A stretch of DNA of 62,811 bases, the filler included, from Sluysia triapertura (Eukaryota), in assembly GCA_046118255.1 (NCBI GenBank). It is 4 parts of 4 records of this genome, joined end to end, with 100 filler letters (N's around TTAATTAATTAA, not from the genome) between each part and the next. Parts side by side here need not be neighbours in the genome. Positions count along the whole stretch, not along the records: positions 32,166 to 46,934 come from JBJNIA010249201.1; positions 47,035 to 62,811 come from JBJNIA010219358.1; 2 more parts are not named here. One strand, given 5' to 3'. Both the position numbers and the translations under genes were made by a program. The notes below the pieces were generated by a model, which saw only the letters and a list, made by a program, of their open reading frames with translations, made no database searches and was not told the DNA's origin. Shown piece after piece: positions 31,585-59,507 of the stretch (position 1 is the first letter of the stretch; every line of letters begins with the position of its first letter).

Positions 31585-31654
31585 GTTAATATTTTTATTT
31601 TAAATTGTCTACTTATAATTGAAAATAAATTACATTTTATAATTTTCATTTCAG

Positions 31655-31784: not shown

Positions 31785-33558
31785 GTTCGTTTTTTTGAAA
31801 TTAATTCAATTTACCGACTGTTTGACATTGAAGATGTATTAATTAAATTTCGTCTGTAAATTTATCCTTTGTGAAAGTAGAAATTTATCTTTATACCAAA
31901 TTTTATTTTTCACAATGTAATCGAAATTAATTAGAAATTCACATTTCTTTATAAATTTTGATAAATAAATCTTGAATAAAAATTTTTTGGATAAAGTTTT
32001 CATTCATCGGTATTTGTTATTGTAGTATGTTGCATTCGATACAAAACTATTCATACATGGTGGAANNNNNNNNNNNNNNNNNNNNNNNNNNNNNNNNNNN
32101 NNNNNNNNNTTAATTAATTAANNNNNNNNNNNNNNNNNNNNNNNNNNNNNNNNNNNNNNNNNNNNGTATTTGCAATTTCTTTTTATTTTCTTAAGGTAAT
32201 TTTAAAATTTTTAATTCAATTTTTAGCTGCAATTACATGATTCATTATTTCGATATCAATTTCTTTCATACTCATCTTAAATTTTGTTATTGTTTTAGTA
32301 TTAATTTGAAAGTAAACGTGAAAATTTGAATGGTTCTGAAGAAATTTTGATTTGTTAGATATGATCCCAAAAATATTATTTAGAAGATAATTCAGAAATT
32401 GTATTTCATCATACTACTCATGAGTTACTTGCATAAAACTTACGAAATTTAACTGATTACAAAAACAAACGATTAAAATATCAGTCTTTGGATCATAAAT
32501 GAATGATTTACAAATTGCCAATTTTTTAACTTACTCATTCACAGCTTTTTTAATATCTTTTTCAATATTGGAAAAATTAAAATAACTGGTTGCTTAGAAA
32601 TCAATAATTTTGATTGACTTTTAATATAAGTTACAGACCTTTATGTCTTATTTAGAGATTTTCATTGAAATAAGCAACTAATAAAATGCTCATCGAGTGA
32701 GAGAAATAGAGCTAAAAGATAATTAAGAAATGGTTAGAAATTGGATTCTTTTTGTGTTGAATTTATACAGGTTTATTTTAGTGTTGTTGAACCTTGAAGA
32801 ATTATTGGATGTAAATTGTAAACTCCTTTCGTCAAGTGATTTATAGAGGAAGAACTGATCATATTTTAGGCTGAAAATGTTAGAAAGTAGAGTAGTTTTT
32901 GACATATACATATACTATTTGATCTTTGCAATAAACATAGTCACATAATCATACACTAGCTCATTTGTAGTTTGATTTGTCATAAATTAAAGAAAAAACG
33001 CCTTTGAAAGGCAGTTAATTAAACGTTGACAAAATATTAAAACAATTATTAGTCTATTTTTAGAATATTAAATAGTTCACTTTCTCAAAAAGAAAAAAGC
33101 TCAAATTTAATAATATCAGCTTAAAACCAATTAGAGATAGTTCACTACTTATATATAGTATTAATTTTCCAATCAAATATTTCCTGTCTATAATATGAAA
33201 TTACAATATAATTTCAATCTAAGTAAGATAAGAAGATGATACTTATCATATAATTTGTATTTTTTCTATACTTTGCTCTATCGTAGTTTGCATTTTGAAT
33301 TTGAAATTAGATACTGTCAATTTTGTTTGGTAGTTTTATATATTTAAATAATATTTTTTCTTATTTTTGTTTTAATTTTTACTATGTAAATATAAAAAAT
33401 GAAAGGACAAAATTTTTGTTTTGTTTTTTACTTAGTATTTAATAAGTATAAATGAAATATTAGTTGGGATATAGATAGGGCCGGTTACGAGTCGATTTAG
33501 CTTAATCAGATCCACGTCCGTATCCGAAGTGCAATCAATTAGTAAAATTACGTAATTA

Positions 33559-33670
33559 ATAATAATAATATATTAATTTATATTGTGCTCATATCTACTG
33601 CGAAAGTACTCAAAAGCGCTTAAGGTAAATCATTCACCATACTATTTTTGAAACAGAAAGAACTGTGCTT
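33559..33670 (-). mobile_element. Second copy of the L2-type LINE 3' end
   Basis: The reverse complement matches about 16490-16590 (TTTCTGTTTCA..GTGAATGATTT..TTAAGCGCTTTTGAGTACTT..GCAGTA..ATATGAGC..ATATAAATTAATATATTATTATTA). Confidence 0.85.
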
Positions 33671-36516: not shown

Positions 36517-36739
36517 AGACAAACCAGTAGATTTAGTACATTGTTTCATGTGTGATTTTGTGTGTTACAACAATACTGAATTGATTAATCATTTACAAGG
36601 TAATTGGCCTAATTCTGTTACTAAATGTGGATTATGTAATCTTGTATTATCATTGGACAAGAAAAATTCTTGTGCTGCTAAAGCTCATGTTTTGTTACAC
36701 ATGGGAATTTATTTAATGTGTCCACGTTGTGGATTTGTT
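36517..36739 (+). CDS. ZNF532/592/687-like C2H2 zinc-finger gene, exon
   Basis: tttag|..|gttagt; HCFMCDF..LINHL..KCGLCNLVL..NSCAAKAHVLLH...MCPRCG resembles the family motif [21 protein letters not shown]..CPECG. Confidence 0.85.
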
Positions 36740-39700
36740 GTTAGTTTTGAGTTTAAGAAATTATGAGGTAGAATTTCTGATAATTATTTAAGATGTCTGT
36801 ACTATTACTAATACATTGTTAAAACTAATTCAACAAAATTATTAACCTCTATTTCTTTATTTGTATTTATAATATAAATAAGTAAATTTATGAGTAATGC
36901 TTTATATATTAGTTTAAATTTCAATTTTAACTTAATTTTATTTGAACAATGAAAATCAGTAAACAAAACTCAACTAAATTATTTATATTTTATAATGTAA
37001 CCTATTGTATAATGTTACATTTATGAATTTTATTCCAATTCTTTATTAAAATTTTGAAAATCTGAAATTAAGCCAGAAAATAATATTATTTAACAGACTT
37101 TATATATTAATGTAACGAATAAGATGTTACATCTTATGTATATAATTTTTACAATAACTATATTTTAAATTTTGTACTGCTGTGAGATGTAAAATAATTT
37201 TTACTTTTTTAATGTTAAATCATCTCAGTAATCTTGAATGTCAAAATTAAAAAATATGATAGAAAACAAAAAGAATACACGAAATACAGATGCGAAAAAT
37301 CCCATAATTCGATTAATACTTAAATAAACAAATAAATACTAGCAAACACAGAAAATGCGTGAATTAATGTAAATTCTAATGTAAGCAAACAAAGATGATA
37401 AATAAAATTAATAACTTCCTGACTAAATTAAGAATTTTTAAGAAAAAATGTGATTTTTTCACATACTTAAATTATACGTTGTATCTTTTCTATTAAAAAA
37501 TAATCTTCCTTATCGACTTTAAACAGAAGTATTTTTAATTTCGCATTATGTATTACTGACAGTTTATAAAATAACGTGATTCAATATGGTATCAAAATCT
37601 ATCAAAGAATTAAATAATATATAGATCGTTATTAATAGATCGTAATTAGTTATAGAAAGTGATTGGCTATGTAATCGAATTAAGTATGGGGTGAAATTAA
37701 CTATAGAATGGAATTGATATTAATATATCAGCTAAAATAATTTTTCTATTCCTTAAATTGTATTATAAGTTTTGTTAAACTTTTTGTTATTTGAATGCAT
37801 AAATTTTCAGTTAATCTAGTTACTTTTGAGTTAAAGGAGAAAATAAGACTGCACTTCCATCTCTTACACCAGAGATGAGTGAACAGTAACCTCCTGTGTA
37901 TTATATTTAGTGTTAGAATATTAGTAGAACACTCTAAACAAGATAAATTTAAGTTTAGCTTTAGTACGCATAAAGACATTTAATAAATAAACCTAACATT
38001 ATAACACGATATATGTTATTAATTGATTTTGATTTCAGTTTAATGTCACATTTAAATTATTCTAATTTTTTATATTGCAGTTTGAACATTTTAACTTTGT
38101 TTAAGTCTAATAATGTATGACCAATGTAACTTGTCCGTTAAGGATATACAATTTCTTGATCAAGAATTTCTTTATCAGCAATTTTCATTGCTTTCTAAAA
38201 AGTTAACTTTGAATTACGATCAAGCCGTCTTAATGATATTATTTTTTTATGATTTTATATTGTCTTACCGTACACTGCATTATTTTTAAATTTTAAAATG
38301 ATTTTTCAAATTCATTTATTGCTTGTTTACGTTTTTCTGAATTATAAATTATACAGTTCTCCAACACATGCCTGACTGAATTTTATTTACAGTAGTACTA
38401 ATTGTAGATACAATTATAATGCACGCCAATGTACAAATAATTTAGTTTGGCTACATACTTTTGAATTGGTTTGGTGTTTTCGTTTGGGTGCTAGGGTTAA
38501 ACCATTTAGATTGTTGTCACTATGAGGTGATATGACTAAATCAACTTCAAAAGCACACCCAATACTAATATTTACAGTATTTACATACATCCATTCTGAG
38601 TTAATATGAAGAAAGTTTGAGGCAACGCCAACTCAGATAAATTATTAACATCTCATCTACTATCACATAATTTATGCAAACAAAAGTTATTCCAGCTGAC
38701 AAACTAAACATTTTTATGTTTACTTTATTGTTTTAATTACTTTAGAGCTAATTCCAAACGTAAATCTTGCAATTATAAAAAATTTAATGGGACCTAATTT
38801 TGTGATTTGAAGGTTTGATCGTTTGAGGTTGGTGGTTTCGGATATCCACCTTCTGACAATGAGTTGTAATAGTGTAATGTAGTTACATGGTTTAAGTTAC
38901 GCAAACACCTTATTTGTCGTAAACTATCGAACGATGACGAATTTATGTAACACGATGGAAGAGAAAAAAGACCTATTGCAACTTACTTTATTAATTGTCT
39001 CAAAATATCCAACAAAGATTTAGCGTGGAGGCCATAATTTGAAGAAAAGGATTGTGATTATAAAAAAGAAAATAAGTTTGTTCGTTAAGAGGCAATTTTA
39101 TATCGTTAATGATTGTAAAAATTACATTAATACAAAAATTTCACTCGGTAGTTTACTGCATAAAAAGGTATTGATTTCGCATGTTACATTAATCCTCAAT
39201 TTTAAATTTCTAGCTAAATTCGTGGGTTCAAATTTTGTCTTTTCATAAGTTATATGAAAATTTAATTCAATCTTAAAATCGTTTATCATCCCGACATTAA
39301 AATTATTAAAACTTATTACTTTATAATGCTATATTTTAAAACTGAATGAATAGAATCTAACTCTGGGGCAAAAATAATCACTAGTAGTCTTGATTATGTA
39401 CAACAAATTTAATCAAAGAATATACATATTTAGTTACCTGCTTAGTTAATGCATCATGCGCATTGGAATCAGATAATCTTGCGATAATTTAACTATATTT
39501 TGGGATCCAATTGAATTTTAATTTCTTTCAGCGAAGACTTTTATTCATTTAGTTTATTCGGAAATTTTATTTCATTCGATTTTCGTGACTAATATAATGA
39601 CTAAAGTCTGTTAATTATTAGTACCAAAATCTCATTTTTCACGAAATTTATTATATGTACTCCTACATAATGTATAGTTAATGGATTATTATTTTTTGTT

Positions 39701-40679
39701 AATGTTGGTTTTGATTCATTTGATTTTGTGATTAAAAAGAAGTTAAATTTATATTACCGTATTTGGTCGTGTATAAAATAATATACAGCATTTAATTTCT
39801 AATATCATGAAAAATAAGTTGTGTTTTTCATTTACATTAATTATACTAATTAAGTGTAACAAATAATTTCCACCTTTTGTTTAAATATTACATTAAACAA
39901 ACTATTGTATTAATGAAGATGATGAAATGAATTTTTGACGATGATGTGCCATTATGCGTTTGTTATGTTTGAAATGTTTTCAAAAGAACTTGAATAAACT
40001 TTTTAAATAAACACTCTAGATTTATCGTAACAATAATTTTATTAAGTATTGGTGTTACAAAATAAATTATAATTATTGTTACATTTACATAAATTAAAGA
40101 TGCACCCTATTTATATATGTAAAAATTGAATTACTTGATTGACTATTCATATATTTCTTTGCGTTTGGATTCAATAATTCATTTTTTATTTTTTTAAAAT
40201 GTGGCGTTTATTTATGAAATTTCTTTCAGATTTTCAACAATTTCACATTAAAATAAAATAAAAGATCAATAATAATCTACTTAAGTTGGACATATGTAGA
40301 ATACTTCGTCATGCAACTTATATTCATTTTTATTTTCCCTAAAACCCATGTTTTTTTATATTGTACAAGTAAATGTATTTGATAATTAATGTTACACAGA
40401 AACTATCATGACTATTAATATTTATAATAAACAATATGTAAATTTATTTTTGTGACTAATAATAAATCGTAATTATTTTTACTTGCAAACTATTTACAAA
40501 TTATAATATGTGATTTATTTTTATGACAAATAACAAAACATAATGACAAACATTTTATATATGTACAATGACTGCTGCTATGATGACGATAAATACTTAC
40601 TATTATTTGGTGTTTTTTAAACTTTAACGTAACATATAAAGATATTTTCAACTATCATATGATTAAAGTCAACATCTAA

Positions 40680-41096
40680 ATTTTTGGCGCCCCAAATTAT
40701 TATCACGCGCTCCTTAGTTTGCGCACATTTGATCTATAGAATCAATTAAATTTTAATGTGATTTCTTGCTGCAGTTGGTATGTCGATCAGTAAAGTTTCA
40801 TAAATCTAATCCGAAGCTTCAGGTACTGAGAAATCAGCGTCTATTTCATTAGATCCACATTTTTCGTCTTCCGATGTAGAAGTTTCATAATCACTTCATT
40901 TTTTATATTGATAAAAAATATCGTAAAAATATTTGAAGATATAATTTCTTGAAAATTTCATAAAAATATAATATAAATTGATAAATTTGAAAATTAACTA
41001 TATTAATTGTCAAATTTAATATTTATCGCAAAAAATTATTTTTTACTGAATGTTTTCTTAGTGGTCAGTTGATCACTAAACTCGTTCTAGGATTAA
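40680..41096 (-). mobile_element. piggyBac-like 5' end remnant
   Basis: The minus strand reads TTAA|TCCTAGAA (cf. TTAA|CCCTAGAA), with a subterminal palindrome TTAGTGGTCAGTTGATCACTAA, then an acidic degraded ORF (SDYETSTSEDEK..EIDADF). Confidence 0.45.
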
Positions 41097-41198
41097 ACAG
41101 TTACAAAATATTTGTAAATTATTTATAAAAACCATCAGAATTATGTAAATAAATTCACCTATTTTGCTTATTTCTAATGATTTCTATTTTACTTACAG

Positions 41199-41424
41199 CC
41201 ACCACCGGATTTAAATCAACGTGATTATGAAATAACATTACGCTTACATTTGCGGTTCGTGTGCTTTCATTTCAATTGTATTCAAATTTATTCGTGTCCT
41301 CATTGTAATCGTGGTTACAATGCCAGTTCACAAGTAATTCAACATATATATGATGAGCATCTGAAAAACGCATATAATTGCCATTTGTGTACAACAAATG
41401 AAGGTAGTACTACTGATCAGAATG
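41199..41424 (+). CDS. ZNF532/592/687-like zinc-finger gene, exon
   Basis: ttacag|..|gttaat, in phase 0 with the previous exon; PPPDL..LRLHLRFVCFHF...YSCPHCNRGY..VIQHIYDEH..AYNCHLC (cf. HVKENCLHY..YRCIHC..SHIQERH..HKCAFC). Confidence 0.87.
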
Positions 41425-42112
41425 GTTAATTTTAATTTATCTTTTCATATTACAATTTCATCTACTTGTAATAATAATAAATTTAATAAAATTGATTAAA
41501 ATTTTGTTCTATTTGATATTTTGGTAAATTTGGCTTTGACTTCTAAGGCATTGAAATAATTCAATTTCTGATGTGTTAGCAGATAACTGATCAGAGTTTA
41601 TTTACTTGTATAAGCCTGAACTTAACATTAAATGTGCAAACTTAGTATTTATTATTATTTCGTGGTTTTTATTCTACAATTACAATTTCTCCCACGCTTT
41701 CGATTAATGAAATTTCCAAATATATAATAACAAATAAAAATATAATAATTAATAATGATAAAAATGTTAAGTAAATTTTTCTTAATATATTTAAGAAAAA
41801 CCTAATCAATTTAAACTAAATAATATATTAAGAAAGAAGTTGAATTCTTGATTATAATTGTGGTTTGATTCTATAACTTTGATTTTTTCGAAAATTCCCC
41901 AAAGCAATACTAAATTTATCAACTATTTAAGTGTTAACAAAAGTTTTTGTAATTGCTATTGTTGCCATAAAACTGAAATCATCAATTGTACTTCATGAAT
42001 TTATGGGTATTGAAATTTCTATTTTATGTCAGGACATATAGTAAAAATTTATAGTCTGATTCATTAATGCTTAATATGTTATTGTCACATAATTAGTACT
42101 TGATTAGTATTG

Positions 42113-42113
42113 A

Positions 42114-42176
<63 letters not shown>
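42113..42176. repeat. (ATT)n microsatellite
   Basis: Seen directly. Confidence 0.95.
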
Positions 42177-43304
42177 GTTCGCTTTCTAGTTTGGAACATT
42201 TATAAAAATTACATAACAGAAAAGGGTTCGCCTGCGTAACACGATTTATTTTAGAAGGACGCGTTCGCAGGATTTAGTCAACGTAAAAGTTTATCAAAGA
42301 GGGTCACTAAACTTCGCTAATATCTTCAAGAAAACTAGAAATTATTCTTCGCACACTGTTGATAAGGATCACTTACTAATTAAATCTTTCTACGTGTTTA
42401 AATCTACTCTGAAATTCTTCGAGATTATTTTAAATCTTTATCGTTTTATATTATGATGTAATAAACGTAATTTATCTTATGTAATTTATCACTTTATATT
42501 ACAATCGTTTATCCGCAATTATGCACTTAATCTATTGTTGTAGATTACACTTTCTTTTCTACAAAAAATCTCAAAAAGACAAGTGTTTAGTAATTAAAAT
42601 ATAAAATATAATGCTTACAATATATAATTTAAATAAAGATAAATTAATTATAATTAATAAATAATTGCAATAAGGATTTTAATGTCAAGTTTGACCCAGG
42701 AGTAATTCTTGGGTTGAAAAGTTATGATTTTAAGTAATATTTTTAGGCAATAGATCTATGCCTATTATGAATAAGCTTACTTATCAATTGATAATTATGT
42801 CTTCTGGTTTTCCCAAAAAATGGATCTGTATCTGGAGGAGCTTGGAACGATTTTTTCGCCAACAATTAAATGCATATAGTGATTCCGACTCGTAGTTTTC
42901 GAAAGTAAATATATATATTTAATCGACTCTCCAACTAGTTTCTTCGTCGCTCGTTTTTTGAGAATTCTCTAATTATAGCGAGTTAATTATTGTGCGTAAA
43001 GATTTACTTGATAATTCCTTTTATAAGTAAGCTTATTCAAATGACTTTTGACCAATAATTAAATGATTAATTCTTTTAATTTTAATCCAAATATTTATGT
43101 TACCAAGATTATTTTAGTTCATAAAAATTTTTCAGTTAATTACAGAATTTTAAATATTTATGTTTCAAAGGTTATAATTTATTTTCGCTTAATTATAAAA
43201 TGATATAATTTTAATTTTATTTCAGTAAAACTTTTTAATATTTAGTAAAACTTTTTTTAATATTATAAAAATTTTTTTTTAATATTTACAAAATTTTAGT
43301 ATTT

Positions 43305-43500
43305 ACAATTTGTATGTCATCATTTACAACCAATATTTACATATGGTATTGAAGACCATATGATTCGATTACACTTGAAACATCATTTATGTATATTATA
43401 AACAACAATGGACCAAGTAATGATCCCTGAGGAACTCCATGCTTTACATGTACCTCATTTGGCTTCTTATTATTCAATAAAACGTATTGTCTCTTTTACT
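43305..43500 (-). mobile_element. Non-LTR (CR1/L2-group) reverse transcriptase fragment
   Basis: [38 protein letters not shown], then a frameshifted degenerate YADD-like VNDDIQI. Confidence 0.88.
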
Positions 43501-46500
43501 AATAAATTATAACATTTTCATGTAATCTAGGAATTGTCCTGGAATGGAACATGCAACTAATGTCGTCAGTGAAGCCTACCGCATATCAAATATACAGTTT
43601 TCAGAAATCAGAATCGTCTATCGACTTCGTGCCCTGGAGATTGGTTCGTAATCTTAATACTTAAACAAACATTCTTAATTTTAATTTCAGGTCGGTAAAA
43701 CAGAAGCACTTGCTCTTCCAATGTCGTGCACGTTAAATATGATCAATAGAATCGAAGTGTACAGGTTCATTTTACGGGCATCAGTGAACGATTTGTCGTA
43801 CAGTCCTTGGTCGAATATTGTTTGTGTTGATATGCCATAATCTGCCAGCCAGTCTGCTCGGCTTTCTTGCTCGAGTAGCACGTGGTGCAGATTCTATTGG
43901 TGGTCTATTTAATAACTTGAAGCCAATATATATTTTATTTAAAAATAATAAGTTGTACATTATTTGTTTTCGTCTATCTTAGATTATTATTTTCTGAATA
44001 ATCATTAAATTCCTAATTCAATATTAACTCTAAGATAGACAGAAGTTTCTGCATAAGCTAGTTTGTAAATAAGAAGCTAATTGAAAGCAGTACTTTGTGA
44101 GATTTTATTCTACTTACCTTTACCTACCTACTTAATTTCAACAGTTCTATCCTTCATTGTTTTCTGTGTACTTTATTAAAATAAGAACGGGTCATCTTCA
44201 TAAATCTTCTAAATCTTTGTAACTAGACAACAGTAACTAGGTACTATTCAAAATTACATTGTTCAAGGTGGATTTCTTCCTGTCTCATCGAGTCGATCCT
44301 TGTAGAACTTGATGATTTTTTCTGATTTGATAAAAATATATAAAGTTATAGTTCATTATTAATTAAACTTGTGATATCTGCGAAACTCAGTAATAAATTT
44401 CAATAAAAACACATTTTAAAGTTATTAAGGATAAAGAGAAACATAACGGTTATGAGTCATGATATAGAAGAATTATGACGAATCATGATAATAAAATAAG
44501 CATATAAATTATTTGAATCAAGACAAAAGAATGAAAGATACGAAAAGATAACCCTTTATAAGGTTTGTTTGTTGAAGTGTTAAAGTACACTTGTTAATTA
44601 ATTTAATTAAAATTTGTTTAATTTGATAATGAATAATGTTCATGATAAATTAATATTAGATTTAGTATAAAAGATGAGTTTTATTAGTATTTTTAATGAT
44701 GAAGTGTTTCGAAGCACGTCGACGTAGATAAGGTAAAAATTAGTTAATAAAATTTCAAATTTCATAAAAATTCCTTATTGAAATAATTTGAGACCATTCC
44801 CAGTTCATTTTTATTAATCAATGTTTATGTTCGACATTAACTATACATTTCTTAAAATCGTTTCCATAGCGCCGTCTATCTTTATTTTTTAACTAATAAT
44901 GCTTCATTTAAGTTTCAGCCAATCAAATTAATTTCATCAATTTTTAATAACCAATTAACTTTAAAATGCGTTTTTACTTGAAATTTATTACTGAATGTCA
45001 TAGGTGTGTCAAGTTTAATGAATAATGGATATCAGAATTTTAATACTTGTACCAAATTTTTTATTATTATTATTATTATAATTATAATTATTATTATTAT
45101 TTGTGATCTTTCTATAATAAATAACTGAAATATTAATCTTTATGCTTTCAAATTTTCGATTTTGAAGATTGAGCGTGCATTATTGTTTCATGCATCTCGC
45201 TTTCAATTTTATATTTCCAGGTAAACATGAAGTAAATTTTCTGATATAGTAATCTATGAAGCACAAAATATACAAAAATCATTAATTAACTAGATTTTTC
45301 ATGATACCAATAATCTGCCAAGGATTGGATTGAAGAGCATGAGTTGTAAATATCTCATTTTCTAAAGTCTTCTGGAATGTCTCTCTGTGTGTATCAATGA
45401 GGCGTTTTTATTCTGTTATGACTTAGTATCCGACCAAATTCTTTTGGAGGGCAAGAGAATTCATATCTATCGTGTTTATTGGTCTTATTATTTCTGGAAA
45501 TTTTCGTATTGGGTATTGTACCAATCAAAATCTAAGTGAATTTTCAGCAAAACGAATCATTGGAGCAAATATTTCACATTCTTATTTTTTCTTTTTCCGG
45601 ACAAGTCAAAGATAGAAAATGGTCATCTTATGAATGTGACTTGTGCGAGAATGTAAAAGTAAATTATTCGACTGAGAATATTCATGATCCAAGTATATTT
45701 TCTGTCATATCGAAAAGTTTGATATGTGTATTTTCTACTTATAATCATGTCATAACAAAATCATAGTGGGATTGGAACATGTTTCGATGTGTGAAATATG
45801 TAAACGAATTACATTCTAGATTCAAATTTCTACAATTTATTGGATTAGAAAGGTAATTGGTGTGTGTTAAATATTAATATCATTCAATTGAATTCTGTGG
45901 GCATAAAATAAGAGTAATGAAGTTGTGGAATTGGAATAATGCAGGAAGTGCTGATACAAATGTTGGACTGATGGGAAATAACTTGGAGTTCCAAGGACTA
46001 TTGTAAGGTATTGAGATCCTTAGAAAACTATTTGAAGAATTAAAGTGCCCTTGAAATTGTGGACCATGAAATAAGTAGAGATATTTGAGTAATCTTGAGT
46101 AATTAATTTAAAATGTTAATATTAATAATTATAATGATGATGATTCTTATAGTAATATAAAATAAAACTACAAAAGATTTGTAAATGTAAATATAAAAAT
46201 TATTGATGAAAACACCCGATTGCGTAACAATATATTGCATAACATTTGAATTTTACTAATTTTGGAAAAGAATTCATTTTTGATTTGGGAAGCAAAAGAA
46301 ATAGTATGCACTACGGAATTATGTTTAATATGTTGATGCAACAGATAAACTTATTTTACTTTGTATTTGATGGATTATATTCATACTCCTTGTATAAAAT
46401 TATTTTTGTTCTAGGTTTGAAATAAACACGAGCACAAATAATAATCCGAAAAAGCAAAATTTGAACTATAGGATTATCCAATAATTTCTTTGCTTTTGTG

Positions 46501-48349
46501 AGAATTGATCCACGATAAACAACGATTGAAATATATAAAATTAATATTAAGAAAGACATTTAATAATAATAATAATCTGTTAATTCTCGTTGATTACCGA
46601 AATAAAGATAATAAAAAACTATTGTTTTTCGATTCGTTATATTATTGGAAATAATTATGAATTACTTGGAAAATGACTATTTGGTTCAACCTAAAAATTC
46701 AAGATTTTGAAATGTTCGTTATATTATAACATTTTTATTGAGTTATGAAATTAAATTAAATTAATTAACAAATGTACTTTAATATTTTAACAGATAAAAC
46801 CTTGTGTAAAGGCTTATTTCTTCGTATTTCTCATTATTTAATCTTGATTTAAATATTTTATATTGTTGGGGTAAAAGGCCTAAAAAGTGCCAAGTAGTAT
46901 AATTGAATATATTGAAAATGAAAAAGTTAGACGGNNNNNNNNNNNNNNNNNNNNNNNNNNNNNNNNNNNNNNNNNNNNTTAATTAATTAANNNNNNNNNN
47001 NNNNNNNNNNNNNNNNNNNNNNNNNNNNNNNNNNATACCTTATCTTAGTTTTTTAATAACGCTCTACTTATCATATTATTCCAAGTTTTGACCCTTATAT
47101 CAACCCTTATCCTTCACTAATCCCAACATGTAGATATAAACATTATTTTACTTTAATATAAAGATAAGCACAAATACCTAACTTTTAATACAAGAAATAG
47201 TTAGACCTGTTTAGAAGTAAGTACCTCAGACGATTATTCACAAATCCATACAAGGAAAACTTTAAGCAAATTCAAATTTAATTAATTTTATAAACCAAAA
47301 CATTACTATATCTATATTTAGAATAATATAATGAGAAGAAACCAAATATAAGTTTAAGAGTTGTTGTGTCTTTGATTTTATGTTACATTGTTTGTTATTA
47401 AATTTAACGTAAATTAAATTATGAACGTTCTTTGAGATATTTATTGCTGTAATTAAACTTAATTTTAAAAATTCTAATTTAATTTCTTTTTTTAACAATT
47501 TTACAGAATAAAGAGATGTATATATATTTATATATATGTACATAAAAATTTGACAATTTTTAATAATTTTTAGATTGTGTAATTACATCATTTATATATA
47601 TATATATATATATAAATGATCTAATTACACAATCTAAAAAATATTAAAAATTGTCAAATTTTGGATCATATTAATTACACCATCAACGTTTAGACATATT
47701 ATGATTCTTCTCAATTGCGGTTTCCTTAAATAAAAAGAACAAAAATCATATGTTAGTTTATAATAAAAATTTAAAATTACTTTAAATCCTGGTTCATTAA
47801 AATGAATGTAAAATATGATTTTGTTCAAGGCTTGCGTTTGAATTTTGCTGATTTGTAGGTTACGATTGATCATGTTGTTTTGTAAAGACGTGAGCAGACT
47901 ATTCAAGCGTTCCTTGAACTATCATAGCTCATCTCCAAAACATTATGAGAATAGTGGCATCAAACTTGATAGATGTCCCGAATTTGTCTACTCGGGATGG
48001 ACATTGTGTATATGAACATTTAGACTTGAATTGATGGTATTAGACTTAACATATTAGCTTTCACGGTATGTTGACTCGGCAGTTGTATTATGTGGGTATT
48101 TGACTTCGTTCCCTTTAATCATATTCTTTTATGATAGTAGGTATTGTGCAGATAAATTTTGTTGAAACATAACTGATGATAAACTAAAACGAAGATTTTT
48201 AAAAACACGATTAAAGATGAATTCTATTATATCAACTTTATCAATAGCATGATAACAACGATACGATTCTTTGTAATCGCTGAATTGTATATTTGGCATG
48301 ATTTGAATATATTTTACATCATTAAATTTTAGTTTAAAGTTAATATCTT

Positions 48350-48860
48350 CACGATTTTGATAAGTTATTAGCATCAAGATTGCCATTTTGAACAACATTT
48401 ATAAACTTTCATTTTGAACGAAATTAAGTTAGTGCAATTTTGTTTACGATAAAATGAAAATGTTCAGGAACAGAATTATTTAGAATAGTAAACTTATCTT
48501 TTTAATACATCGACTTTATTAACCACACGAATAGAAGGTATATCTGAACGATGTTGTCTCAATTCTTTGTACCGATTATCCAGAATTTTGTAAGAAACTT
48601 TTCATGTAAGATGAAACGCCAAGGAATAATACGATGTATGTACATGACGATAACACGAGGTATGCATACTTTGAAAAAGTTCTTGAACAGCTGGATCGTA
48701 GAAATTAATCGTTGTCTTTTTACTACCTAAATCAGTTTCATATTTAAATAAGGTTAGAGCATAAGCAGATAATTGTTGTGGTTGACATTTGTCCATCAAA
48801 AACTGTTCAACTAATATAAACTTTTGAACCACATATCCTGGACAAATTGTTTTCACACTA
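48350..48860 (-). pseudogene. RABL2: Intronless degraded RABL2 (Rab-like 2 GTPase) copy
   Basis: VKTICPG..LVEQFLMDKCQPQQLSAYALTLFKY..INFYDPAVQELFQSMHTSCY..*KVSYKILDNRYKELRQHRSDIPSIRVVNKVD versus RABL2 KIICLG..LMERFLMDGFQPQQLSTYALTLYKH..VDFWDTAGQERFQSMHASYY..KVTYRNLSTWYTELREFRPEIPCIVVANKID. P-loop and DTAGQ are degenerate and there is an in-frame stop. Confidence 0.88.
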
Positions 48861-49291
48861 ATATAAAATACAGATCTTTAGTGTAATACTCAGGTGGTTC
48901 GGACATCATTGAATGTTAATTTTCAATAAAAATTTTTGATTCTTTTAAATAAATACTAATTTTTAATATTTTTATTAGTAAATAATTATCTAATTTTATT
49001 TTAATTAATTTTTAATGATAACAATTGTCGTCAGAAGAGTTTTTATCAAAAAATGATTGGACGGCCATATGACGAACGGTGACACATCTGATTAATTTAT
49101 GTTGGGTGCATTTCTTAATCTAAAAACCTAACCTATAGCAAAATAATTAATTATTCTGAGTCCATTTACAGTATACGACTCACTAATGGCGTACCTGTAA
49201 AATTACGTGAAAACAATTATCAAAATTAATCGTACAAAAATATTCTTTGCCTTAGCTTAACGGTAATGGGCAAAAACGTCGTTTTGACTTG

Positions 49292-49394
49292 GGTATTCCA
49301 TAAGATAGCGTTGGTCTTAATTAGTTTTTAATTGACTTATTAACAATAAATAACTTAAAAACTAATTAAGACCAACGCTAGCATATGGAATATC
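49292..49394. repeat. Short palindromic MITE-like element
   Basis: Perfect 25-bp inverted repeat TAGCGTTGGTCTTAATTAGTTTTTA (from 49306) / TAAAAACTAATTAAGACCAACGCTA (to 49380), extended by TATTCCATA/TATGGAATA. Confidence 0.8.
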
Positions 49395-51254
49395 TAAATT
49401 AATATAAAAATCTAGTGAATAATATTCGTATAAAAACGTGTCGTCTCTTATAACTTCAAATCTTAATATAATGACCGTTAGCACTTTTTAGTTTTTTTCT
49501 TTTAAATTCAATGAAACAATATTGGAATTAACGTCTTTACAATGAAAAATATATTAAAGTTTAAATATTAAGACAAATATAGTAAAAAACAAGGCTTAAA
49601 AATGCTCTAATATTTTTATTGTACAAAACTAAAATAAAAATGACAGTTATTATAAATTTAAAAAAAATTCAATAAAAAACTATTGTCAAAAAACACAAAA
49701 TTTTATGAATAATAAATTTATAATAACAATAATAATGAAGCTATAATAAGGGTTTAGCCAAAAGACTCTACCCTACAATACTGATTTTATAATTGACCTT
49801 AAGGGCCAAGTAAAGATTTGAGATTTTATATTTTAGTTTGATTTTATGATTAGCCTTAATGATCAACCTTGCAAAACAGTATTTTAAGTTGAATTTTTAA
49901 CTCAATGAGAGTTTATAGACTTATGCAAATCAAACTTACGGATCAATTAATAATATGGACAGTCCATATTCAGTAATATGGTTTGTATTTGAATTGATTT
50001 GTTGAACTGCTACTGCTTGAAAAGTGCTATCCCTCTTATCGAATACGCGGGAATCGCACAATGACTTGAATAGTGGATTTGAAATAATAATTTAACAATG
50101 AATATAACAGTGGTGCCGCCAAAAATCTTTTATCGAAATGCTGAATTTCAAAATGTCGCAATTATTTTCTGTCTATTTTTAATGGCTTCTTTATTTGCTA
50201 ATGTCTTTATATATGTACAAACAAATCTCTTAACATTTATTTGATTTGTTTAAGTGTAATTAAACCAACTCCAACATGTTATTGAAATCGACTTACGACG
50301 TATTATATAAAAGATTTCTATGAAAACAAATTTAGTATTTCATTAATTTATCTTTATTTTAAGTTGATAAGTTGTGTTAATAACAAAATATTAATTTTGA
50401 TTTAATTATGTTGAAAAGATAAGGAGATTGTTTAACACAAATCCCATTATCCTTGGGTAATTTCAGGAGAGAATAAAATTGGAAACAGACGGAAATTACT
50501 ATCGAAATTTAATTATTAAAATTGGTGGGCTTATAACCGACTAAAAGGAATGAATAGTCTAATAAGTAATTATTTCCGTATTTTCCACTTTCCAATTTTC
50601 AAGCGATTACCAAACTGCTATATAAACAATCAGATTTCTGGATAAAAAGATTTCTGGACTTTACAAAACCTTACAAAACTTTACAAGACTTTACAAGACG
50701 CTGCCTCAATATATTTGTGATAAACATTGTGTTTCAGGACTCATCTTTAGCAATTGATTAAAATTTAAAAAGAGTGGTTTTGTTTTTGTTAAGGTTAGTA
50801 ACCTACAGTTTTATTTTATTATTGTTAATAATAGGCGTCAATATTTATTGTGTTGCGTCACCCATGGAATTCTATAGATAGTGATTTATAGCTTTAAATT
50901 TCAGTTATTAATTGAAGGCATATTATTGTAAAAGAATAATTGCTAGATTATTGTGCTAGTTAAAAATGTACTGAGATTTCGTGTTAATTCTATTATTGAT
51001 TTATAATAGAACATTTTTTGATGCTTACACAACAAATTCTAAGTAATCAAAAGAAAATGAGTTTGCATTCATCATAATCCAAAATTATTCATAGCCTTTA
51101 TATTTTCAATAACAAATAATTTACATTTCTTTGATGTTATAAAAAGATAATAATATAAAATAAAATATGAAAAAATGCAAGTTTTATTAAATATGAACAA
51201 TTGTGAAGTTCTATAGTTATTTAGCATGAATATAGTAATTAAATTATTTACATT

Positions 51255-51281
51255 ATTATTATTATTTTACTATTATTATTA

Positions 51282-51318
<37 letters not shown>
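51255..51318. repeat. (ATT)n microsatellite
   Basis: Seen directly. Confidence 0.9.
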
Positions 51319-51319
<1 letters not shown>

Positions 51320-51574
51320 GTTGGGATTGCCGTGTAGTGAAACAAGAAATTAATTTAAAAATGCAAGAGGTACTGTGTAAAATGATGAAACATTTTGGAG
51401 TAAGAATGATGAAAATAAAAACATTTATGAATTTTCCAATATTGTGTTCGACAGCTTTTGATATAAAAAATAGCCGTGTCATTTCCTAACAAACTACAGA
51501 TTTCTTCACACTTTCTTATCAATTCCATATTGTACATGTATAACATGTTTATAAATGTCAATATGATCGAAAAT

Positions 51575-52330
51575 GTTTACATTAAAATTACTATTTGACA
51601 ATAAAGAGACATCCATACTTTTAAATGTGCTATATTATGATGTTTTGAATCATAAATTGGATTCATAAATTCTTCTTTATTGTGATTAAAGAAGTCCCAA
51701 ACTGATAATGTGTTTTCTAAAATTAACTTTGATTCAACTCTGTACTTTTCACAGTTTCCGACGAACGTTCCATCTTTGAAACATCCTCAGTAATTTTTCA
51801 TTATATTCGAAATGGACTAGATAAGTGCTCATAAGTTGATATAAACAGTCAAGAAATTGAATAAACACCGGAGCTACTTCAAATGAATTTGAATTCATAT
51901 ATAATTGTCCACATGTGTCCCCAATTTTATGTCCGAATAATCACCAGTCTTCTAATCTTCTAATCCTTTAAAAGTTCACGAATAAGGATTGATTATAACT
52001 TGCGCTAATGCATAACGTGAGATATTCGATCCCAACAACCACTGCAGTGAACCAACACATTTTCTCACATATATATCCAAAATCATTTTTAAATAATATA
52101 GTCATCCACTTTTTCAATAACTGTTATATATTGTGGATAAATTAAATATAAATTGCGACAATCTTGTATAAATTTTCAAGCTACTTCTCATAACATGAAT
52201 ATTTTCAACATCGAAAAACTTCAAATCAATATCTTCATAAACATCAGCAGTTTCAAATCCTGTTCCTTTAGCTTTATTCGTAATTAAGTTAATTATTGGT
52301 CAAGTGTAGATTGTAGTGTTCAATTCATCC
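51575..52330 (-). pseudogene. Intronless degraded myotubularin phosphatase (MTMR6/7/8-like) copy
   Basis: NKAKGTGFETADVYEDIDLKFFDVENIHVMRSSLK; EKSG*LYYLKMILD; ENVLVHCSGCWDRIS (degenerate HCSDGWDRT, 52026-52053); FGHKIGDTCGQL; EVAPVFIQFLDCLYQL; FEYNEKLL; GTFVGNCEKYR. Several frameshifts; missed by the ORF track. Confidence 0.92.
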
Positions 52331-53619
52331 ACGAACCATAAAAAAACTCAACTACAAATATTCCATACGCAGTACAACCTTACCACATCTTTTACACATG
52401 ATAACATCTAAAATATAACATACTTTAAACATATATTAAATATAATCTAATATATTTAGATTACAATAATTAATCATAATAGCATTAACTTTAATCCGCC
52501 GATATTGCCTCTCTCATTTGCATCAACATTGTGTTAATTATCACAATATTAAACAATATTAGATAATAATAATATATAATTATCACTTGTTATATGTGTT
52601 AAATGACTAATTTTATACTAAATTCAATAATTGTAACTAATTCAATTCACTTTGATGACAATTCAATTCACTTTGATGACTAATTGTAACTAATTCATCA
52701 CACATAATTGATTAATTACTATACTAATCTATAAATATATATATTATTGATTAATTGTTATTGATTTTTTGAAATTATTTTTATCTGACTAAATTTATTT
52801 ATTAACTTTATCTGGAAATAATGTATGAATTTATTTATTAATTTTATCTGGAAAATTCTAAAGTATGTTTTATTAATTATTTTATTAAATTTTTATTTCT
52901 AACTTTTAATATTAATTATTAACTTTTAATATTAATTATTATTTTAATCAAACGTGATTATTTTCGAAATATTTTGTTTTAATCTGATCTTTCAAGGTCA
53001 GATTAAAACTACTATAAAAACAAGCTTAATTTTCATAATTTACACATAATTTTTAAAGAAAAAGATTTCATAATTTGTTTACAAGTTTTCAATATTTGGT
53101 GAAGTTGTTAATTTCAAAAGGACCAATCTATTAAAAAAGGAAAAAATCACGTTAGATAATTATTATTAAGACAAGATATTATTATAATATCGTTTGCAAC
53201 ATTTATACTTAAACTCATTGAATAAATCTGGACCATTTATTATTATCATTTTTATTTCACATATCTTTATTATTTTTATTATTATTAAATTTTGTTTCTA
53301 ACCACTACAACCTGCCATCAATTGAGAGTTTTTAATTTAATTTAGTACACATAATTTTGTGAATGCAAATTGATGACAGTTGTTCAATCAGAGTTTAACT
53401 GTTTTAGGAGTTGTCATGTTGTAATATGGGTTGTTGTTTGAGATTAAAAACTTTTAAATAGATTTTTACATTTTACGTTTTATTTCTTTATAATCTTTAT
53501 GGTTTAAATATACTTTATCACATTTAATTCTTCGAAAATATCGTTTAACTTTGGTTGAATAAATAAAAAGATCACTATTTATTATATTTATAATATTTTA
53601 AATTTGATTAACAGATAAT

Positions 53620-55270
53620 TTTAAAGTCCATTTATAGAGAATAACCTCTTCGAATTCAAAATTTTCAAGTTTCTAAATAACAATAAAGGATGATAAAACT
53701 CAATTATAAGAACGTAAATACGGTAAGAAATAATAATTACCTTTAAGTTATGAAAATTTTTATCGTGAAGAGTTTTTCGTTCAAATTTTAAATCAATTGA
53801 TGAATTCTTTGTTTATGATCTGTTAAGTATGACACAAACGAAATTTTCCGACAATTCAGTTCCGAACCTTGTACAATTTCCATCTAAATTCGTAGTATGA
53901 AGACACCAACCAGACTTAAAGTGAAGTATCTCTCGTCCAAAACTTATTGTCTTATTTGAGTTCTGATAGTACATGTGTGGGTCTGAGCGATGTTATCATT
54001 TAAGAATAATCTTCAGTGAATATACTGTCATTTACCGGAAATTTTAATGGCTTCAAAATTTTAATTTCTTTAATTTTAAAAATTTGGAAGAGCCAATTTG
54101 GCATATTTATAAACGATTGTATAGAATTGGTTCTTTATTTACGCATACAATGAAGTCATCTTGTAAATTATTTAATGTAAAGTCAGAATCACGTTTATCC
54201 AATACATAACGCAAAATAACTAAATCATTATCACTGCACTTAAAACGATTGTAACTAATTTCTACTTCATTCTCATCTTCACTAATCCATCCTAAGAAGA
54301 TAGCGTTATGAATATCATAATTCTGTAAACTTTTAATAGGCTCACAAAATTGTTTTCTCTTAGTTTCAAAATTATTTTTTATTAAAAAAGTATAAGAACA
54401 CAAATTTACTTTAAACATTAGTCGTAATATAAGACATTCATGCTTATATTTAATAATTTTACTTACTTATACCCAAATACGTTCAATACTATTATTTAGA
54501 CTATGGGCATTTAGCTTGGTATAAGATACAACTTCTTTTATGAGTGATTTGGATTGTTCCGAAGTTATTAAGTGATCTTCTTAAAATTATTTCCAACAAA
54601 ACGGATAATATTAATTTCTAAATCTTTAATGTCGCCGAAGTGATCGTAATTAAAAATATCTTCATATAAATTGAAAGATTAATAGTTAGAACACGTATCT
54701 CGTCATTTATTTTAATATCTTTTGTAAATTCATCTTGTGTACTGTGGCCATCAGTTATAGAATCAAATAGTAACGTGGTTATTTCAAAATCATCTTTATC
54801 ATTAATCTTTTAGGTCATTGTAATGTGTGATTCAAGGATTAACATGCGACATATTAACTCTGTTCGAGCTTTCGATCTAAACATTATATTTCTTGATAAA
54901 TAAGTGCCATTCAATGTTTTTTGTAAATAATTTTTATTAATTAAAAAAAGTCAGTATACTCTATTGTGATTGACGTGTTACTTATGTTATAAAATATTGT
55001 TATTAAAAGAAGTTTTATACTAGATTATAAATATTGGTAAATTAGGATGATGTGTTTTATATCTGTTTGTATAATGCCAATTGTGATATTAAATTAGGAT
55101 TTGATTATTTTAAAGAGATATGGGCTTGTTCTTCACAAAATTAATTATCTTCAGATAATTGTCAGGCAATCTAAAGTCGGAAATTCATTGGAAATTAATA
55201 TTAAAATTCCATTTTAGTAATGGGTCGGCATAAAACCAACTCTAAGAAAATAGCATGTATAGTAGACATG
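53620..55270 (-). pseudogene. Degraded large type I membrane glycoprotein-like ORF
   Basis: Signal-like start MSTIHAIFLELVLC (about 55270), about 1.6 kb of coding-like sequence including ORF 54107-54418 and Cys-rich GWCLHTTNLDGNCTRFG..FVCV, and a hydrophobic end. No introns. Confidence 0.4.
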
Positions 55271-57348
55271 CAAAATAATTAAATTGAATTCCAGACTATC
55301 TGCTAATTTTTACATAAAATCACAATAAAAATCCAAAAAAAACGTCAACAGTAACAGTTGACAAATTAGTCAAGCACTTCTTGCTATAGGGACGCTGGGT
55401 TCAATTGAGTTGTGGATAATGCTCATTAAATGTTTTTCTTCAGCAATAAGTTTATGTGGTTAGTATAGAGTTAAGATTCATTTTGTTTTTATTATTATTT
55501 TATATTTTATTTTATACACAACATTTATGTTGTGTAACTAATGCGATATTTAATGAGTTTGACAATAATTTATTAAAGAATTTGATTAACTATATAAAAG
55601 TTTGATTTATATAACTGTAATTGTAATATAAAGAATTGTCATATAAAGATGTGATTTGTATAACTGTTATATAAGAATACATCGAGATTTAGTTTTATTT
55701 GTTATTATGTAAAGTGATCGGCTGAACCACCACAATATTATTTCAAGATAACAAAGAAACAATTGAAAATATTAAAGAATATTGAGCTTTTACCTTTCAA
55801 TTGTGTTGATGTTTTTTGAAATTTATTATGATCAAGAGAAAACTCATTTTAAAAATAACAAAAATAATTTGCAAAATTTAATGAAAATCAGAATATATTT
55901 TTATCTTAATTTCACATAAAGTATTAATGGCATTATTAAATTTCTTTAAATGATTGAAGCTTTAATAAAATTTTCATTTCATAAGACACGTATATTTGTT
56001 TTAATATGTTAATCTTATATTCTAAATGTACGATCAAAGTTAAAAAATTGCAAGAATAATCTATAAAATTGCCTTTTTTAACGTAGATTAACATATTTTA
56101 AATATAAAAATAAGTTTTGATTATTATTGAATACCATATGCTATAAGTAAAATATATGTCTATGGAATTGTGGATAGAATAGTATTTGCACACTGATCAG
56201 TCGACTATAAATCACATCTGTATGTTATATTATCGATTATTTCTGCGTTTTACAGTTTTTAGGCCAATACTATTTTCATATACATATTAATCTACCAACT
56301 ATTGTTGTATTAATAAATAAAAATACATTTATTAATTGATTTTAGTGTTGTTTGTACGTAATAAAGATCAGATAATAAAATATAAAAAAATTATTTTAAA
56401 TTATGGAAATTTATAATTATTATCAGATTTTATAATAATGTATTTTGTTAACATTTCCATTTCCTGATTAATTTCCTTATTTATCATACTCTAAATCCGG
56501 CCTTAAACCAAACAAAACATTAATGTTAACATACTTATTGTAATCTTTTCTGTAATATTATCTTTTGTGCACTGAATGTTACAAAAAAGTAAAATATACT
56601 GTCTCGTCAATTAATTATATTTTAAGTTTAAATTAAGAATATTTTATCTAATAAAAATGGACATTATTATTTTATTTGTAAAATTGTAAACAAAAGTGTT
56701 GCATTAATTTACTTTCAAAATTTTATTGCAAATAAGTTTATGCTAAACGTTTATCTCTAAAATTGCATTAGATACTTTTTATCCTGTTAATTAATTAAGT
56801 TATAATTAGTCTTGTGGTGGCCAACCTATGACTTAACAAATTTTATTAAAGTTTTTCTTTATAACACTGCAAAATCAAATTCACTTTCAAAACTTACAAT
56901 GTACATTTTAAGAACTCTTTAAAAACATTTTTTCACATAGTCTTATATCAGCATAATCAAAATCACCCGCATGGTTTTCAATGCATTCATATTTTTTTGG
57001 TAGACGGAAGGTAAGTAAGATTAATTACTAAGAACTTTAATAAGAATGTTAAAGTTTATAAATCTAATTATAATATTACGGATTTATAAAGTATTAATGT
57101 GTAAAGGTGTATAAAATTATTATATTTTTGAATATCAAAAAATGATTGTAAAAATTATTAAAATTACTATTATTTAAAAAATCCTAATAATAATTAAATT
57201 AAAATTAAAATTAGTAATTAATTTTTTTAAAAGTAAACTAAAGGAATGTGCGAGTACAGAGAATTGTTTTATTAAAGTAATTTTTTAAAATATGTCTTTA
57301 TGAATATATAAAGAACACAAAGAAGAAAAAGCCATATTACTTTACCAG

Positions 57349-57609
57349 AAACCTTATTTCATTTGTCAGCAGTTCAATTAATTCGTTATTTTGGTAATTC
57401 AATCCAGTCGTCATCAGAAAAGTTATTAAGTCATTTACATCTTATTTCTGGTGCTCCAGCAGTTCTCAAATTCGTCAACCATCCAACAGCATTATATCCC
57501 GCGTCTACGATAAAAGAGAATACAACTTCCAGTTATCAACAAGCCAAGCAATCAAATTATTTGGGAAAAACAATTCTAGAGCTCGAACACTCTTTTGTTA
57601 ATAAAATTT
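57349..57609 (+). CDS. Internal coding exon, probably the next exon of the zinc-finger gene
   Basis: ttactttaccag| 261 bp open |gtaagt; phase 1-1, compatible with the exon ending at 41424 (..DQN-E-TLFHLSAVQL..). Confidence 0.7.
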
Positions 57610-59507
57610 GTAAGTTTGTTTTGTATAATTTGAACACTCAATGTGAGTTAAAATATCCACGTAAAATATCAAATTTTCGGTTGGTCATTAAGATCAATCA
57701 TAAAATCACTTTAAATTCTAAATTCATAGCTTTTTAGTTGGCACTTAAAGGCAATTATAAAATACTTATCAATAGGTAGAGTCTTCGGGCTAACCTTTTA
57801 TTATAAATCATTAAATCTTATTATTATACTTTTAATATTTACAAAATTTGAATTATTAGTACTTTTCTTTTTATCTTTATAAATTCACCAATGTATTATT
57901 TTAATTTATTCAATTTATTCAAATTGTCGTACAATAAAAATTGGATAGTGTGAAGTTTTTGTTTATGAGAATTTTGTGTTAAATTCGTGAATATAAGTCG
58001 AACTTACATTTTTTATATTGTAGGAAATTTAAAAAATTATATAGGTTATTATTAGTGGAAATAAGTGAATTACAGTTTAAACTCTCTAACATATTAAGTA
58101 ATTGAAGTTAAGCTTAAGAAATAAAATAATATGTTTTTATATAAATATTGTCGATCTTAATCTTATATTAACTTAAATATTGTATATTCCAACGTTGGTC
58201 GTGATTATTTTTTAAGTTATTTAGTGTCAGACTATTTTGTCCATTATTGTTTAAATTAACTTTTAGAATTGTTTTCACGTAATTTTACAGGTACGCCATT
58301 AGTAAGTCGTATAATGTAAAGGACTCTGAATAATAATAATTTATTTTACTGTAAGTTAGGCTCTTTATTAAGAAAAACTCAGCAAATTTTAAAGAAAATT
58401 AATGAAATAATCAATTTTAAAATTTTATAATCACATTTTGTATAATAATAGTGAAAGATAAGTTTAATTATCTGCAAATGATTTTCTAATAGTGGAAAGT
58501 AGTTATATTAATATAATAAAATATAAGAAAACGGCATTATATATAATTTTTAAATTACAATTTTTTTACACTTATCAAGCAATAATATCTCTAAAAAAAT
58601 TGCACTTAAAGTATATTTATCTTTTTAAATGCCACTATTTAAATAAAAGAGATTTATTTGCAGATAATTTATGCAGTAAAGAAATAGAAAATGGTTTTTA
58701 TTTCTTGATTTTAATTTTTTATTAAATATTTTAGTGTCTTTATTTTATATAGATGTTTTATTAATTTTTAAATTAATTATTATTAACAAATAAATAATAT
58801 AATTTTCTTATAAACCGTTTTAACATTTTGCATTAAAAAGTTAGTATTTTAGTATTTTTATAAATAGTTTTATTGTAATATAAATAGAATGTTGTAAAAT
58901 TATTTAATAATTTAATAACTCATTAGAATTCATTTTAATTCCATTTAAACATTCGATTTTCTTCAAAAACAATTATTCAACTTTGTTTAAATTTTCTAAG
59001 TATTCTGTAAGATGAATCAAATTTGAAACAGTAAATTTTTATTTAAATATTTTTTAAAAATTTCTTCAAAAAAATTTATGAATTAAAATATATATATGTA
59101 TTACTTTTATATTACTTAAAATTTTTGCATTATATTTTCCAATTATTAAATTATTATTAAATTATTATATATAATAAATTAAAAAAATTAAAAAATATAA
59201 AGAAAAGTCAATTTAAAATTAAACCTTAAAAAAGAAAGTAAAAAATGGAAAAAATTAAAACTTAAAAATAAAAATTTTTCAATAAAAATTGTTTGTTAAT
59301 GAAATGGAAAAAATAAATGATAGAGAACATCTTAATCGAACAAATTAACGTTTCTTCCTGAGCCGCGTTCATTCATGCAAATATAATGAATAAGGCAAAA
59401 TGGAAAAAATGAAATATATATGTACACGGAAAAATAAAATAAAAACAAAAACTGTAGTAAATTCACTTCAGAAAAAATTGAGTAATGAATTTGGAAAAGT
59501 AGTATTA

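Follow-up and report, generated by a model that had tools for sequence, protein, structure and literature searches.

We analyzed a 62,811-nucleotide (nt) stretch of the Sluysia triapertura genome (GenBank assembly GCA_046118255.1), referred to as the window herein, and in it a cluster of decayed, intronless coding remnants on the minus strand between positions 47,634 and 55,270. With moderate confidence, we interpret this cluster as a nested mosaic, built of repeats and of dead host-gene copies that arose by retroposition; within it, a unit made of a Rab-like small GTPase and an orphan reading frame was likely amplified by a non-autonomous element. Under this interpretation, the host mRNAs of a myotubularin and of the Rab-like protein would have been retroposed as separate insertions; a non-autonomous mobile element, with rolling-circle, long terminal repeat (LTR)-chimeric, or terminal inverted repeat (TIR) elements as the candidate classes, would have multiplied the Rab-like copy and the orphan frame attached to it into some tens of copies; and all insertions would have decayed afterwards, an order of events that we infer. 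No function is expected for the cluster. As read here, it is an instance of known processes, a repeat graveyard with dead gene copies, and its point of modest interest is that a Rab-like retrocopy seems to have gained further copies as part of a repeat. An earlier reading made from the DNA sequence without database searches (the sequence-only reading) had proposed one or two insertions of gene-capturing giant elements instead.

Two host-gene fragments and an orphan frame

The myotubularin that the sequence-only reading had placed on the minus strand as an intronless copy was borne out. When 47.1-56.1 kb was read through in six frames and scanned against Pfam, the only families returned were Myotub-related, Ras, and Roc, which share one minus frame, and the myotubularin fragment matched PF06602 at E=2.5e-12. 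Its closest matches in the PDB are MTMR8 and MTMR6 (E ~1e-19), with bit scores of 74.9 and 73.7 for MTMR6/8 compared to 56-67 for MTMR1/2, and both relatives recovered in a homologue search carry the names MTMR8-like and MTMR6-like. By sequence likeness, we assign the copy to the MTMR6/7/8 subfamily. In a frameshift-tolerant alignment, reference residues 320-587 are collinear over 52344-51595 with identity at 106 of 239 positions; a second reference moves the alignment start to 52398. These 750 nt hold 268 reference residues without an intron-sized gap, the largest insertion being seven codons and the deletions short, and the host genes of the window, as seen in exons of KCNQ, a kinase, and a C2H2 zinc-finger gene, are intron-rich. 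The copy carries four frameshifts and 5-6 stops (∼3-4 disablements per 100 codons), its catalytic loop is altered, and its N-terminal part is missing, with homology beginning at reference residue 214-320. The minus-strand open-frame excess over this stretch was reached in none of 200 dinucleotide shuffles. The copy would have passed through an RNA intermediate. An (AAT)n array ∼275 nt beyond the end of homology is a possible decayed tail, arrays of this kind being frequent in the window, and an 11-bp AT-rich repeat with one mismatch flanks the copy at 51245 and 52453, which by a rough estimate equals chance in AT-rich DNA.

The second fragment is, on its sequence, a small GTPase of the Ras/Rab type. 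Positions 48877-48500 match Pfam Ras at E=1.4e-7 and Roc at E=3.4e-7, the fragment aligns collinearly to residues 14-119 of SEC4, and its PDB matches include SEC4 and Rab30. The ATG at 48909 is off-frame, at least two stops and at least two frame changes are present, and of its motifs the P-loop and DxxG are gone and NKxD is retained. The sequence-only reading had called this a RABL2 fusion. We confirmed a broken, intronless Rab-like GTPase that runs into an orphan frame; the name RABL2, which we presume from its motifs, was returned by no search. None of the 19 PDB matches of the fragment is RABL2, its top atlas matches are Arf/Ras clusters at 0.81-0.87, and a homologue search limited to near lengths gave one candidate and none at E<=1e-10. 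The open-frame excess of the Rab part is weaker (p=0.06, again with 200 dinucleotide shuffles). In a metagenome scan with the Rab frame, three loci were rejected as short chance matches, one being off-frame in GC-rich DNA and two lying in a bacterial-type operon.

A frame that starts at 48398 runs for ∼230 codons with five stops, and we refer to it as orphan A; it may be a fusion partner or the tail of the parent gene itself. Its first ∼20 residues appear to resemble the C-terminal helix of RABL2. Its open-frame excess is likewise weaker (p=0.085, 200 dinucleotide shuffles), its homologue search (near lengths only) gave 114 candidates with none at E<=1e-3, and neither an IMG/VR scan nor Pfam-type scans gave a relative or a match. 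The claim of a same-strand, intronless, decayed cluster is partly borne out: the myotubularin, the Rab-like GTPase, and two orphan frames lie on the minus strand, the open-frame excess being weaker for the Rab part and orphan A.

Contig depth across the cluster

Depth was summed over 18,579 contig records of one public run (X1), placed at 80% likeness on 47040-59100 in 403-nt bins; this summed depth is not a copy number and was used only to class segments. X1 was the one run in which the DNA was found, and no RNA run was found with it, which carries no information on expression. Across 12 kb the depth classes range over four orders of magnitude (Table 1). Exact unique contigs have a depth of 9.8-18 in seven of the eight pieces listed, with 20,401 further pieces beyond these. 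By this classing the myotubularin is low-copy, with bins of 44-90 and exact unique contigs at depths of 18 and 12.6, and the Rab unit and a second orphan frame (orphan B) are mid-copy. The spacers between the coding remnants have depths of 1,400-298,000 and are very abundant repeats.

Two observations make mobile-element capture or amplification of the Rab-like and orphan A unit plausible. First, four consecutive bins stand at 437-589 compared to 10-18 for unique contigs, the Rab bins themselves being at 507-589 as averages that may include spill-over from neighbors. Second, a diverged contig copy over 47984-48408, with 50 mismatches and 18 gap letters, spans the junction from the Rab part to orphan A. 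At the left edge of the unit, a palindrome sits where it meets unique DNA, with a unique contig at 47103-47488 just to its left. Separately, a very abundant repeat ends within 47040-47128; its boundary at ∼47128 is sharp, several joints begin there, and a CCCAACA motif comes last.

If no amplification had occurred, the two copies would be plain independent processed pseudogenes, cross-matching of AT-rich sequence or spill-over would account for the mid depth, and orphan A would belong to the parent gene itself, as a C-terminal extension or 3′ untranslated region; we regard this account as improbable. The 5′ truncation of the myotubularin followed by the (AAT)n array and the flank repeat fits it, a lone RPL23A retrocopy in the window shows that such copies exist, and the contig over 47984-48408 (depth 6) could be the parent's exon. 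Against it, the interior bins at 47846-48651 (437-589) are ∼10 times the mostly unique bins (44-51) without an adjoining high-depth bin, a deletion variant (48241-48317) is present in two contigs, and the flank repeat is, by the rough estimate given above, at chance level.

Table 1 Features of the cluster, contig depth classes, and gaps of the window. Depths are summed over contigs of one run.
Feature	Position	Strand	Remarks
Gap	13082-13181
Gap	25582-25794
Gap	32066-32165
Gap	46935-47034
Depth class	47443-49054		437-589 (bins 480, 437, 589, 507); Rab/orphan A unit
Palindrome, 118 bp	47545-47662	.	59-nt arms, 97%, (AT)n center; left edge of Rab/orphan A unit
Orphan A, decayed frame	47634-48398	-	open pieces of 89 aa and 94 aa, five stops between
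Broken intronless Rab-like small GTPase (likely RABL2)	48400-48909	-	Pfam, SEC4 collinearity, depth
Depth class	49055-49860		27,000-123,000
Abundant repeat Y, ORF remnant at far end	49100-50240	-	per-bin depth 3,000-123,000, reaching 540,000 at 49164
Hairpin (structured segment)	49284-49402	.	58-nt arms, 84%
Depth class	49861-51472		580-16,800
Diverged copy of abundant repeat X	50388-50557	+	matches 55086-55253; bin depth 16,752
(AAT)n array	51252-51319	-
Depth class	51473-52278		44-90 (bins 44 and 90); myotubularin
Intronless 5′-truncated MTMR6/7/8 phosphatase-domain fragment	51595-52398	-	Pfam, PDB, frameshift alignment, depth
Depth class	52279-53487		2,000-5,000
Non-coding AT-rich repeat segment, short tandem units	52400-53500	.	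depth 2,000-5,000
Depth class	53488-54696		386-765 (bins 555, 386, 765); orphan B
Orphan B, decayed frame(s), ∼440 codons in total	53621-54950	-	pieces of 46, 63, 119, 59, and 63 aa
Depth class	54697-55905		25,000-298,000
Very abundant non-coding repeat X	54983-55700	.	per-bin depth 25,000-298,000; a loose end falls at 54983
Depth class	55906-56308		51

Orphan B

Two open reading frames (ORFs) had been described to the right of the myotubularin, one with an NC motif and one called membrane glycoprotein-like. Orphan B takes in the former and the coding-like part of the latter. Its minus-strand open-frame excess (53600-54960) was reached in none of 200 dinucleotide shuffles. A search of 1.84 billion representatives gave no match, no usable match was found in the atlas and no relative in the IMG/VR scan, and a single-sequence model had a predicted local distance difference test score of 32, which is unusable. 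A profile scan returned only sub-threshold zf-CCCH hits (E=0.0036-0.067), so that the NC-motif label is left without family support. The frame starting near 55270 closes after 22 codons inside repeat X, and no minus-strand frame of at least 45 aa occurs in 54960-55900, where depth is 25,000-298,000. A membrane glycoprotein-like ORF starting there was not confirmed; only 54950-54500 looks like an ORF remnant, and no search supports either "membrane" or "glycoprotein" for it. Orphan B, with a depth of 386-765, probably derives from the ORF of a further mid-copy repeat.

Repeats between the remnants

Repeat Y, which lies to the right of the Rab-like GTPase, has a second, inverted copy at ∼57300-58380 that is 67-86% alike in local matches and contains no gene fragment. 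The structured segment of the sequence-only reading lies within repeat Y, and its hairpin is real (folding z=-8.4 for 49100-49460). It is a local inverted duplication of ∼60 nt in that abundant repeat, since the second copy lacks the first arm. No Rfam family reached its gathering score for the hairpin and no tRNA was found, and a metagenome scan with the repeat-Y motif found nothing. The second copy of repeat Y also holds a 141-codon plus-strand frame (57312-57734, p=0.015, depth ∼6,000-10,000, no Pfam match), which may be a remnant of an autonomous partner's ORF.

Repeat X likewise occurs twice, and the pair scores 71 compared to 38 for the next unrelated tile among 932 tiles. Between the myotubularin and orphan B, the AT-rich segment at 52400-53500 has no frame of at least 45 aa on either strand. 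Further dispersed or inverted repeat pairs of ∼80% identity lie elsewhere in the window (16455-16600 with 33552-33694, and 44325-44424 with 44956-45057).

One carrier element or several insertions

Because the summed depth is very uneven, a nested mosaic fits better than one element. The competing account is that one old, large gene-capturing element, either of Helitron type or a somewhat Burro-like LTR chimera that arose through template switching, carried orphan B, the myotubularin, and the Rab/orphan A unit in a single orientation, which we consider unlikely while giving it real weight. We view as similarly unlikely its corollary that the uneven depth stems from insertions and deletions of later date and that the myotubularin was a late capture present in few copies. 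Published precedents would allow such an element: bat Helitrons capture sequentially, and nested retrogenes are amplified within these DNA transposons with unequal copy numbers (PMC4224331), and LTR elements make multi-parent, intronless chimeras (PMC5131818).

Several of our own observations count toward the single element or weigh against the nested mosaic. Every coding remnant in the cluster, including the ORF remnant of repeat Y, points in the same direction, and the two mid-depth units, orphan B (386-765) and Rab/orphan A (437-589), are alike in depth. The myotubularin and Rab copies are similarly decayed, the Rab disablements having been counted by eye only. Neither copy has a convincing poly(A) tail or target-site duplication (TSD), and no A/T run of at least 8 was found near either. 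One contig of depth 72 joins the myotubularin at 52100 to 53275, and the sole cover at 52222 is one contig of depth 37; these two contigs hint that the 52.4-53.5 kb repeat may adjoin the myotubularin in a small number of further copies. The depth classing itself comes from 403-nt bins at 80% likeness in one run, in which mostly unique bins still give 44-51 and 15 of 388 joints are listed.

We searched the cluster for the hallmarks of a carrier. The six-frame Pfam scan and a further profile scan gave no transposase, Rep/helicase, gag, protease, reverse transcriptase (RT), integrase, or env domain; non-autonomous Helitron copies would lack Rep/helicase, and old copies may have lost their 3′ ends. 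In 47.0-59.1 kb, a search for the Helitron 3′ hairpin with a CTRR end gave three weak, AT-rich candidates and no GC-rich hairpin before CTRR-T. Comparison of 16 region pairs in both orientations for a long direct flanking repeat returned only the 170-nt diverged repeat X pair and AT-rich matches that did not pass a stricter null, no element-scale direct or inverted terminal pair was found beyond repeats X and Y, and the TSD and TIR search gave only short AT-rich low-complexity matches. The inverted repeat Y pair leaves the Rab unit outside, and no matching TIRs with a TSD were found around the gene copies. A TG...CA-type 10-mer occurs exactly at both 47128 and 51319, which is what the ends of one element could look like; with one mismatch it is seen five times compared to a mean of 4.2, i.e., at chance level, making it a weak lead only. 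Of the proposal of giant insertions, then, amplification stays plausible for Rab/orphan A, and a single carrier is not supported: the myotubularin is low-copy, the spacers are separate repeats, and termini, TSD, and enzyme were not found.

The sequence-only reading had also argued that independent retrocopies are unlikely to cluster in this way. When four fragments are placed randomly in 62.8 kb, a pair falls within 3.5 kb with P=0.52 and a same-strand pair with P=0.29, and three units all lie on one strand with P=0.25, so the clustering is less surprising than had been argued. Host-derived fragments occur at ∼1 per 15 kb here, since an RPL23A copy (22.7-23.0 kb) and KH fragments (12.1-12.4 kb) are also present. 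The former, a decayed, frameshifted RPL23A (uL23) copy at 22700-23050 on the plus strand, lying amid the kinase exons (PDB E=1e-12, Pfam E=1.5e-6), is a lone processed pseudogene and serves as a control. At 43.3-43.9 kb on the minus strand lies a decayed RT of a long interspersed nuclear element (LINE) (RVT_1, E=1.9e-6), from which it follows that retroposition machinery existed. An (AAT)n array ∼1.2 kb downstream of it, in the stretch 42114-43900, is possibly a microsatellite tail.

The glycoprotein block and the assembly

A broken Monjiviricetes-type fusion glycoprotein (G) lies at 8082-9605 on the plus strand (PF24664, E=3e-15 and 1e-5; G remnant at 8.6-9.4 kb). KH-domain fragments at 12064-12409 are on the strand opposite to G, to the left of a gap and of the KCNQ C-terminal exon (13354-13749). 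No pol domain was found among the natural frames scanned near this G/KH block. The block had been proposed to belong, possibly, to the same superfamily as the cluster. It is 35 kb and four gaps away, and comparing the window with itself by blastn and tblastx gave no credible match between the two, so the link is not supported. AT-rich likenesses of the G-block spacer at 10569-10699 to the regions upstream of the Rab and myotubularin copies were rejected as lying inside the window-wide empirical null.

It is very improbable, in our judgment, that the cluster derives from a large DNA virus, or a virus-like element, that had become endogenous and also gave rise to the G/KH block. Intronless same-strand ORFs with AT-rich spacers, and a Monjiviricetes-type glycoprotein remnant with KH fragments in the same window, would suit such an origin. 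The Pfam scan of the cluster, however, gave no viral hallmark, IMG/VR scans gave no relative for orphan A, orphan B, or a myotubularin query, the 1.84 billion representatives gave none for orphan B, and the cluster has no DNA or translated likeness to the G block across the four gaps.

A partial assembly artefact, with pieces wrongly joined through abundant repeats, likewise has very little probability. The assembly does have gaps, no listed contig spans the cluster, and 0.62 of the sampled words occur in the run. On the other side, no gap interrupts the cluster, which occupies the left end of the last gap-free piece, a single contig (47035-62811), and exact unique contigs overlap across 51331-52010 in the myotubularin area. 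The sequence-only reading had put the cluster inside one intron, a placement that the flanks did not confirm: to its left, the 100-base gap at 46935-47034 separates it from zinc-finger exons; to its right, nine candidate frames were scanned without a match better than E=0.02. Three gaps (13082-13181, 32066-32165, and 46935-47034) each have an identical 12-base all-frame stop linker inside their 100 bases, and the order across these three may not equal real adjacency.

Comparison with known systems

The nested mosaic combines features of several described systems. Like LINE-made processed pseudogenes, the cluster has intron-free, disabled host-gene copies, a 5′-truncated myotubularin, and a LINE RT remnant nearby; unlike them, it has no clear poly(A) or TSD and its Rab unit appears multi-copy. 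Retrogenes and captured fragments amplified by Helitrons or Helentrons (PMC4224331, PMC4067079) share with the probable history of the cluster host fragments multiplied some tens of times in non-autonomous repeats and then decayed, whereas here no Rep/helicase and no CTRR-plus-hairpin end were found. LTR-mediated retroposition (PMC5131818) yields partial intronless copies, possible fusion, no poly(A), and further amplification, as may apply here, but the cluster has no flanking LTR pair and no demonstrated gag or pol remnant.

The planarian Burro elements (PMC6431247) are large, giant Gypsy-like elements with host-like domains and an env glycoprotein related to the fusion proteins of negative-strand RNA viruses, and their decayed fragments occur in a related species. 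In contrast, the cluster has no gag, RT, integrase, or LTR, and G is 35 kb off across four gaps; the Burro paper has no occurrence of "myotubularin". A retrotransposon-captured chuvirus-type glycoprotein (PMC7642597) is a precedent for the G block at 8.1-9.6 kb, and no tie to the cluster was shown.

In a bolder version of the single element, which we hold to be doubtful, the cluster would be what is left of an undescribed family of large mobile elements in an AT-rich animal genome that captured, one after another, spliced mRNAs of membrane-trafficking genes: one for a myotubularin, and one for a RABL2-like GTPase joined in frame to an orphan domain. Equally doubtful is its extension to a Burro-like element with an orphan ORF of its own, whose Rab fusion spread to tens of loci and whose enzyme genes lie outside this copy. 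If true, this would add an animal example of a large element that gathers and fuses trafficking genes, and with it a way in which new chimeric genes can arise. Among the papers listed in searches of a literature mostly without subscription papers, none was found that links myotubularin or RABL2 to a gene-collecting element. An LTR family in the original planarian genome paper reportedly includes a myotubularin domain.

Other features of the window

The window has a GC content of ∼23%. Kinase exons with sub-threshold Pfam PK_Tyr_Ser-Thr matches and multi-kb introns occupy 20713-31856 on the plus strand, with two exons close together at 31.4-31.9 kb; the kinase is presumably KSR/Raf-like. Exons of the C2H2 zinc-finger gene follow at 36500-45763 (plus strand). 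A 288-codon open frame at 14023-14889 on the plus strand has a signal-like start, a Cys-rich segment, and no Pfam match, and is unusually long and open for DNA of 24% GC. Its Cys-rich segment appears to resemble Ly6/three-finger proteins.

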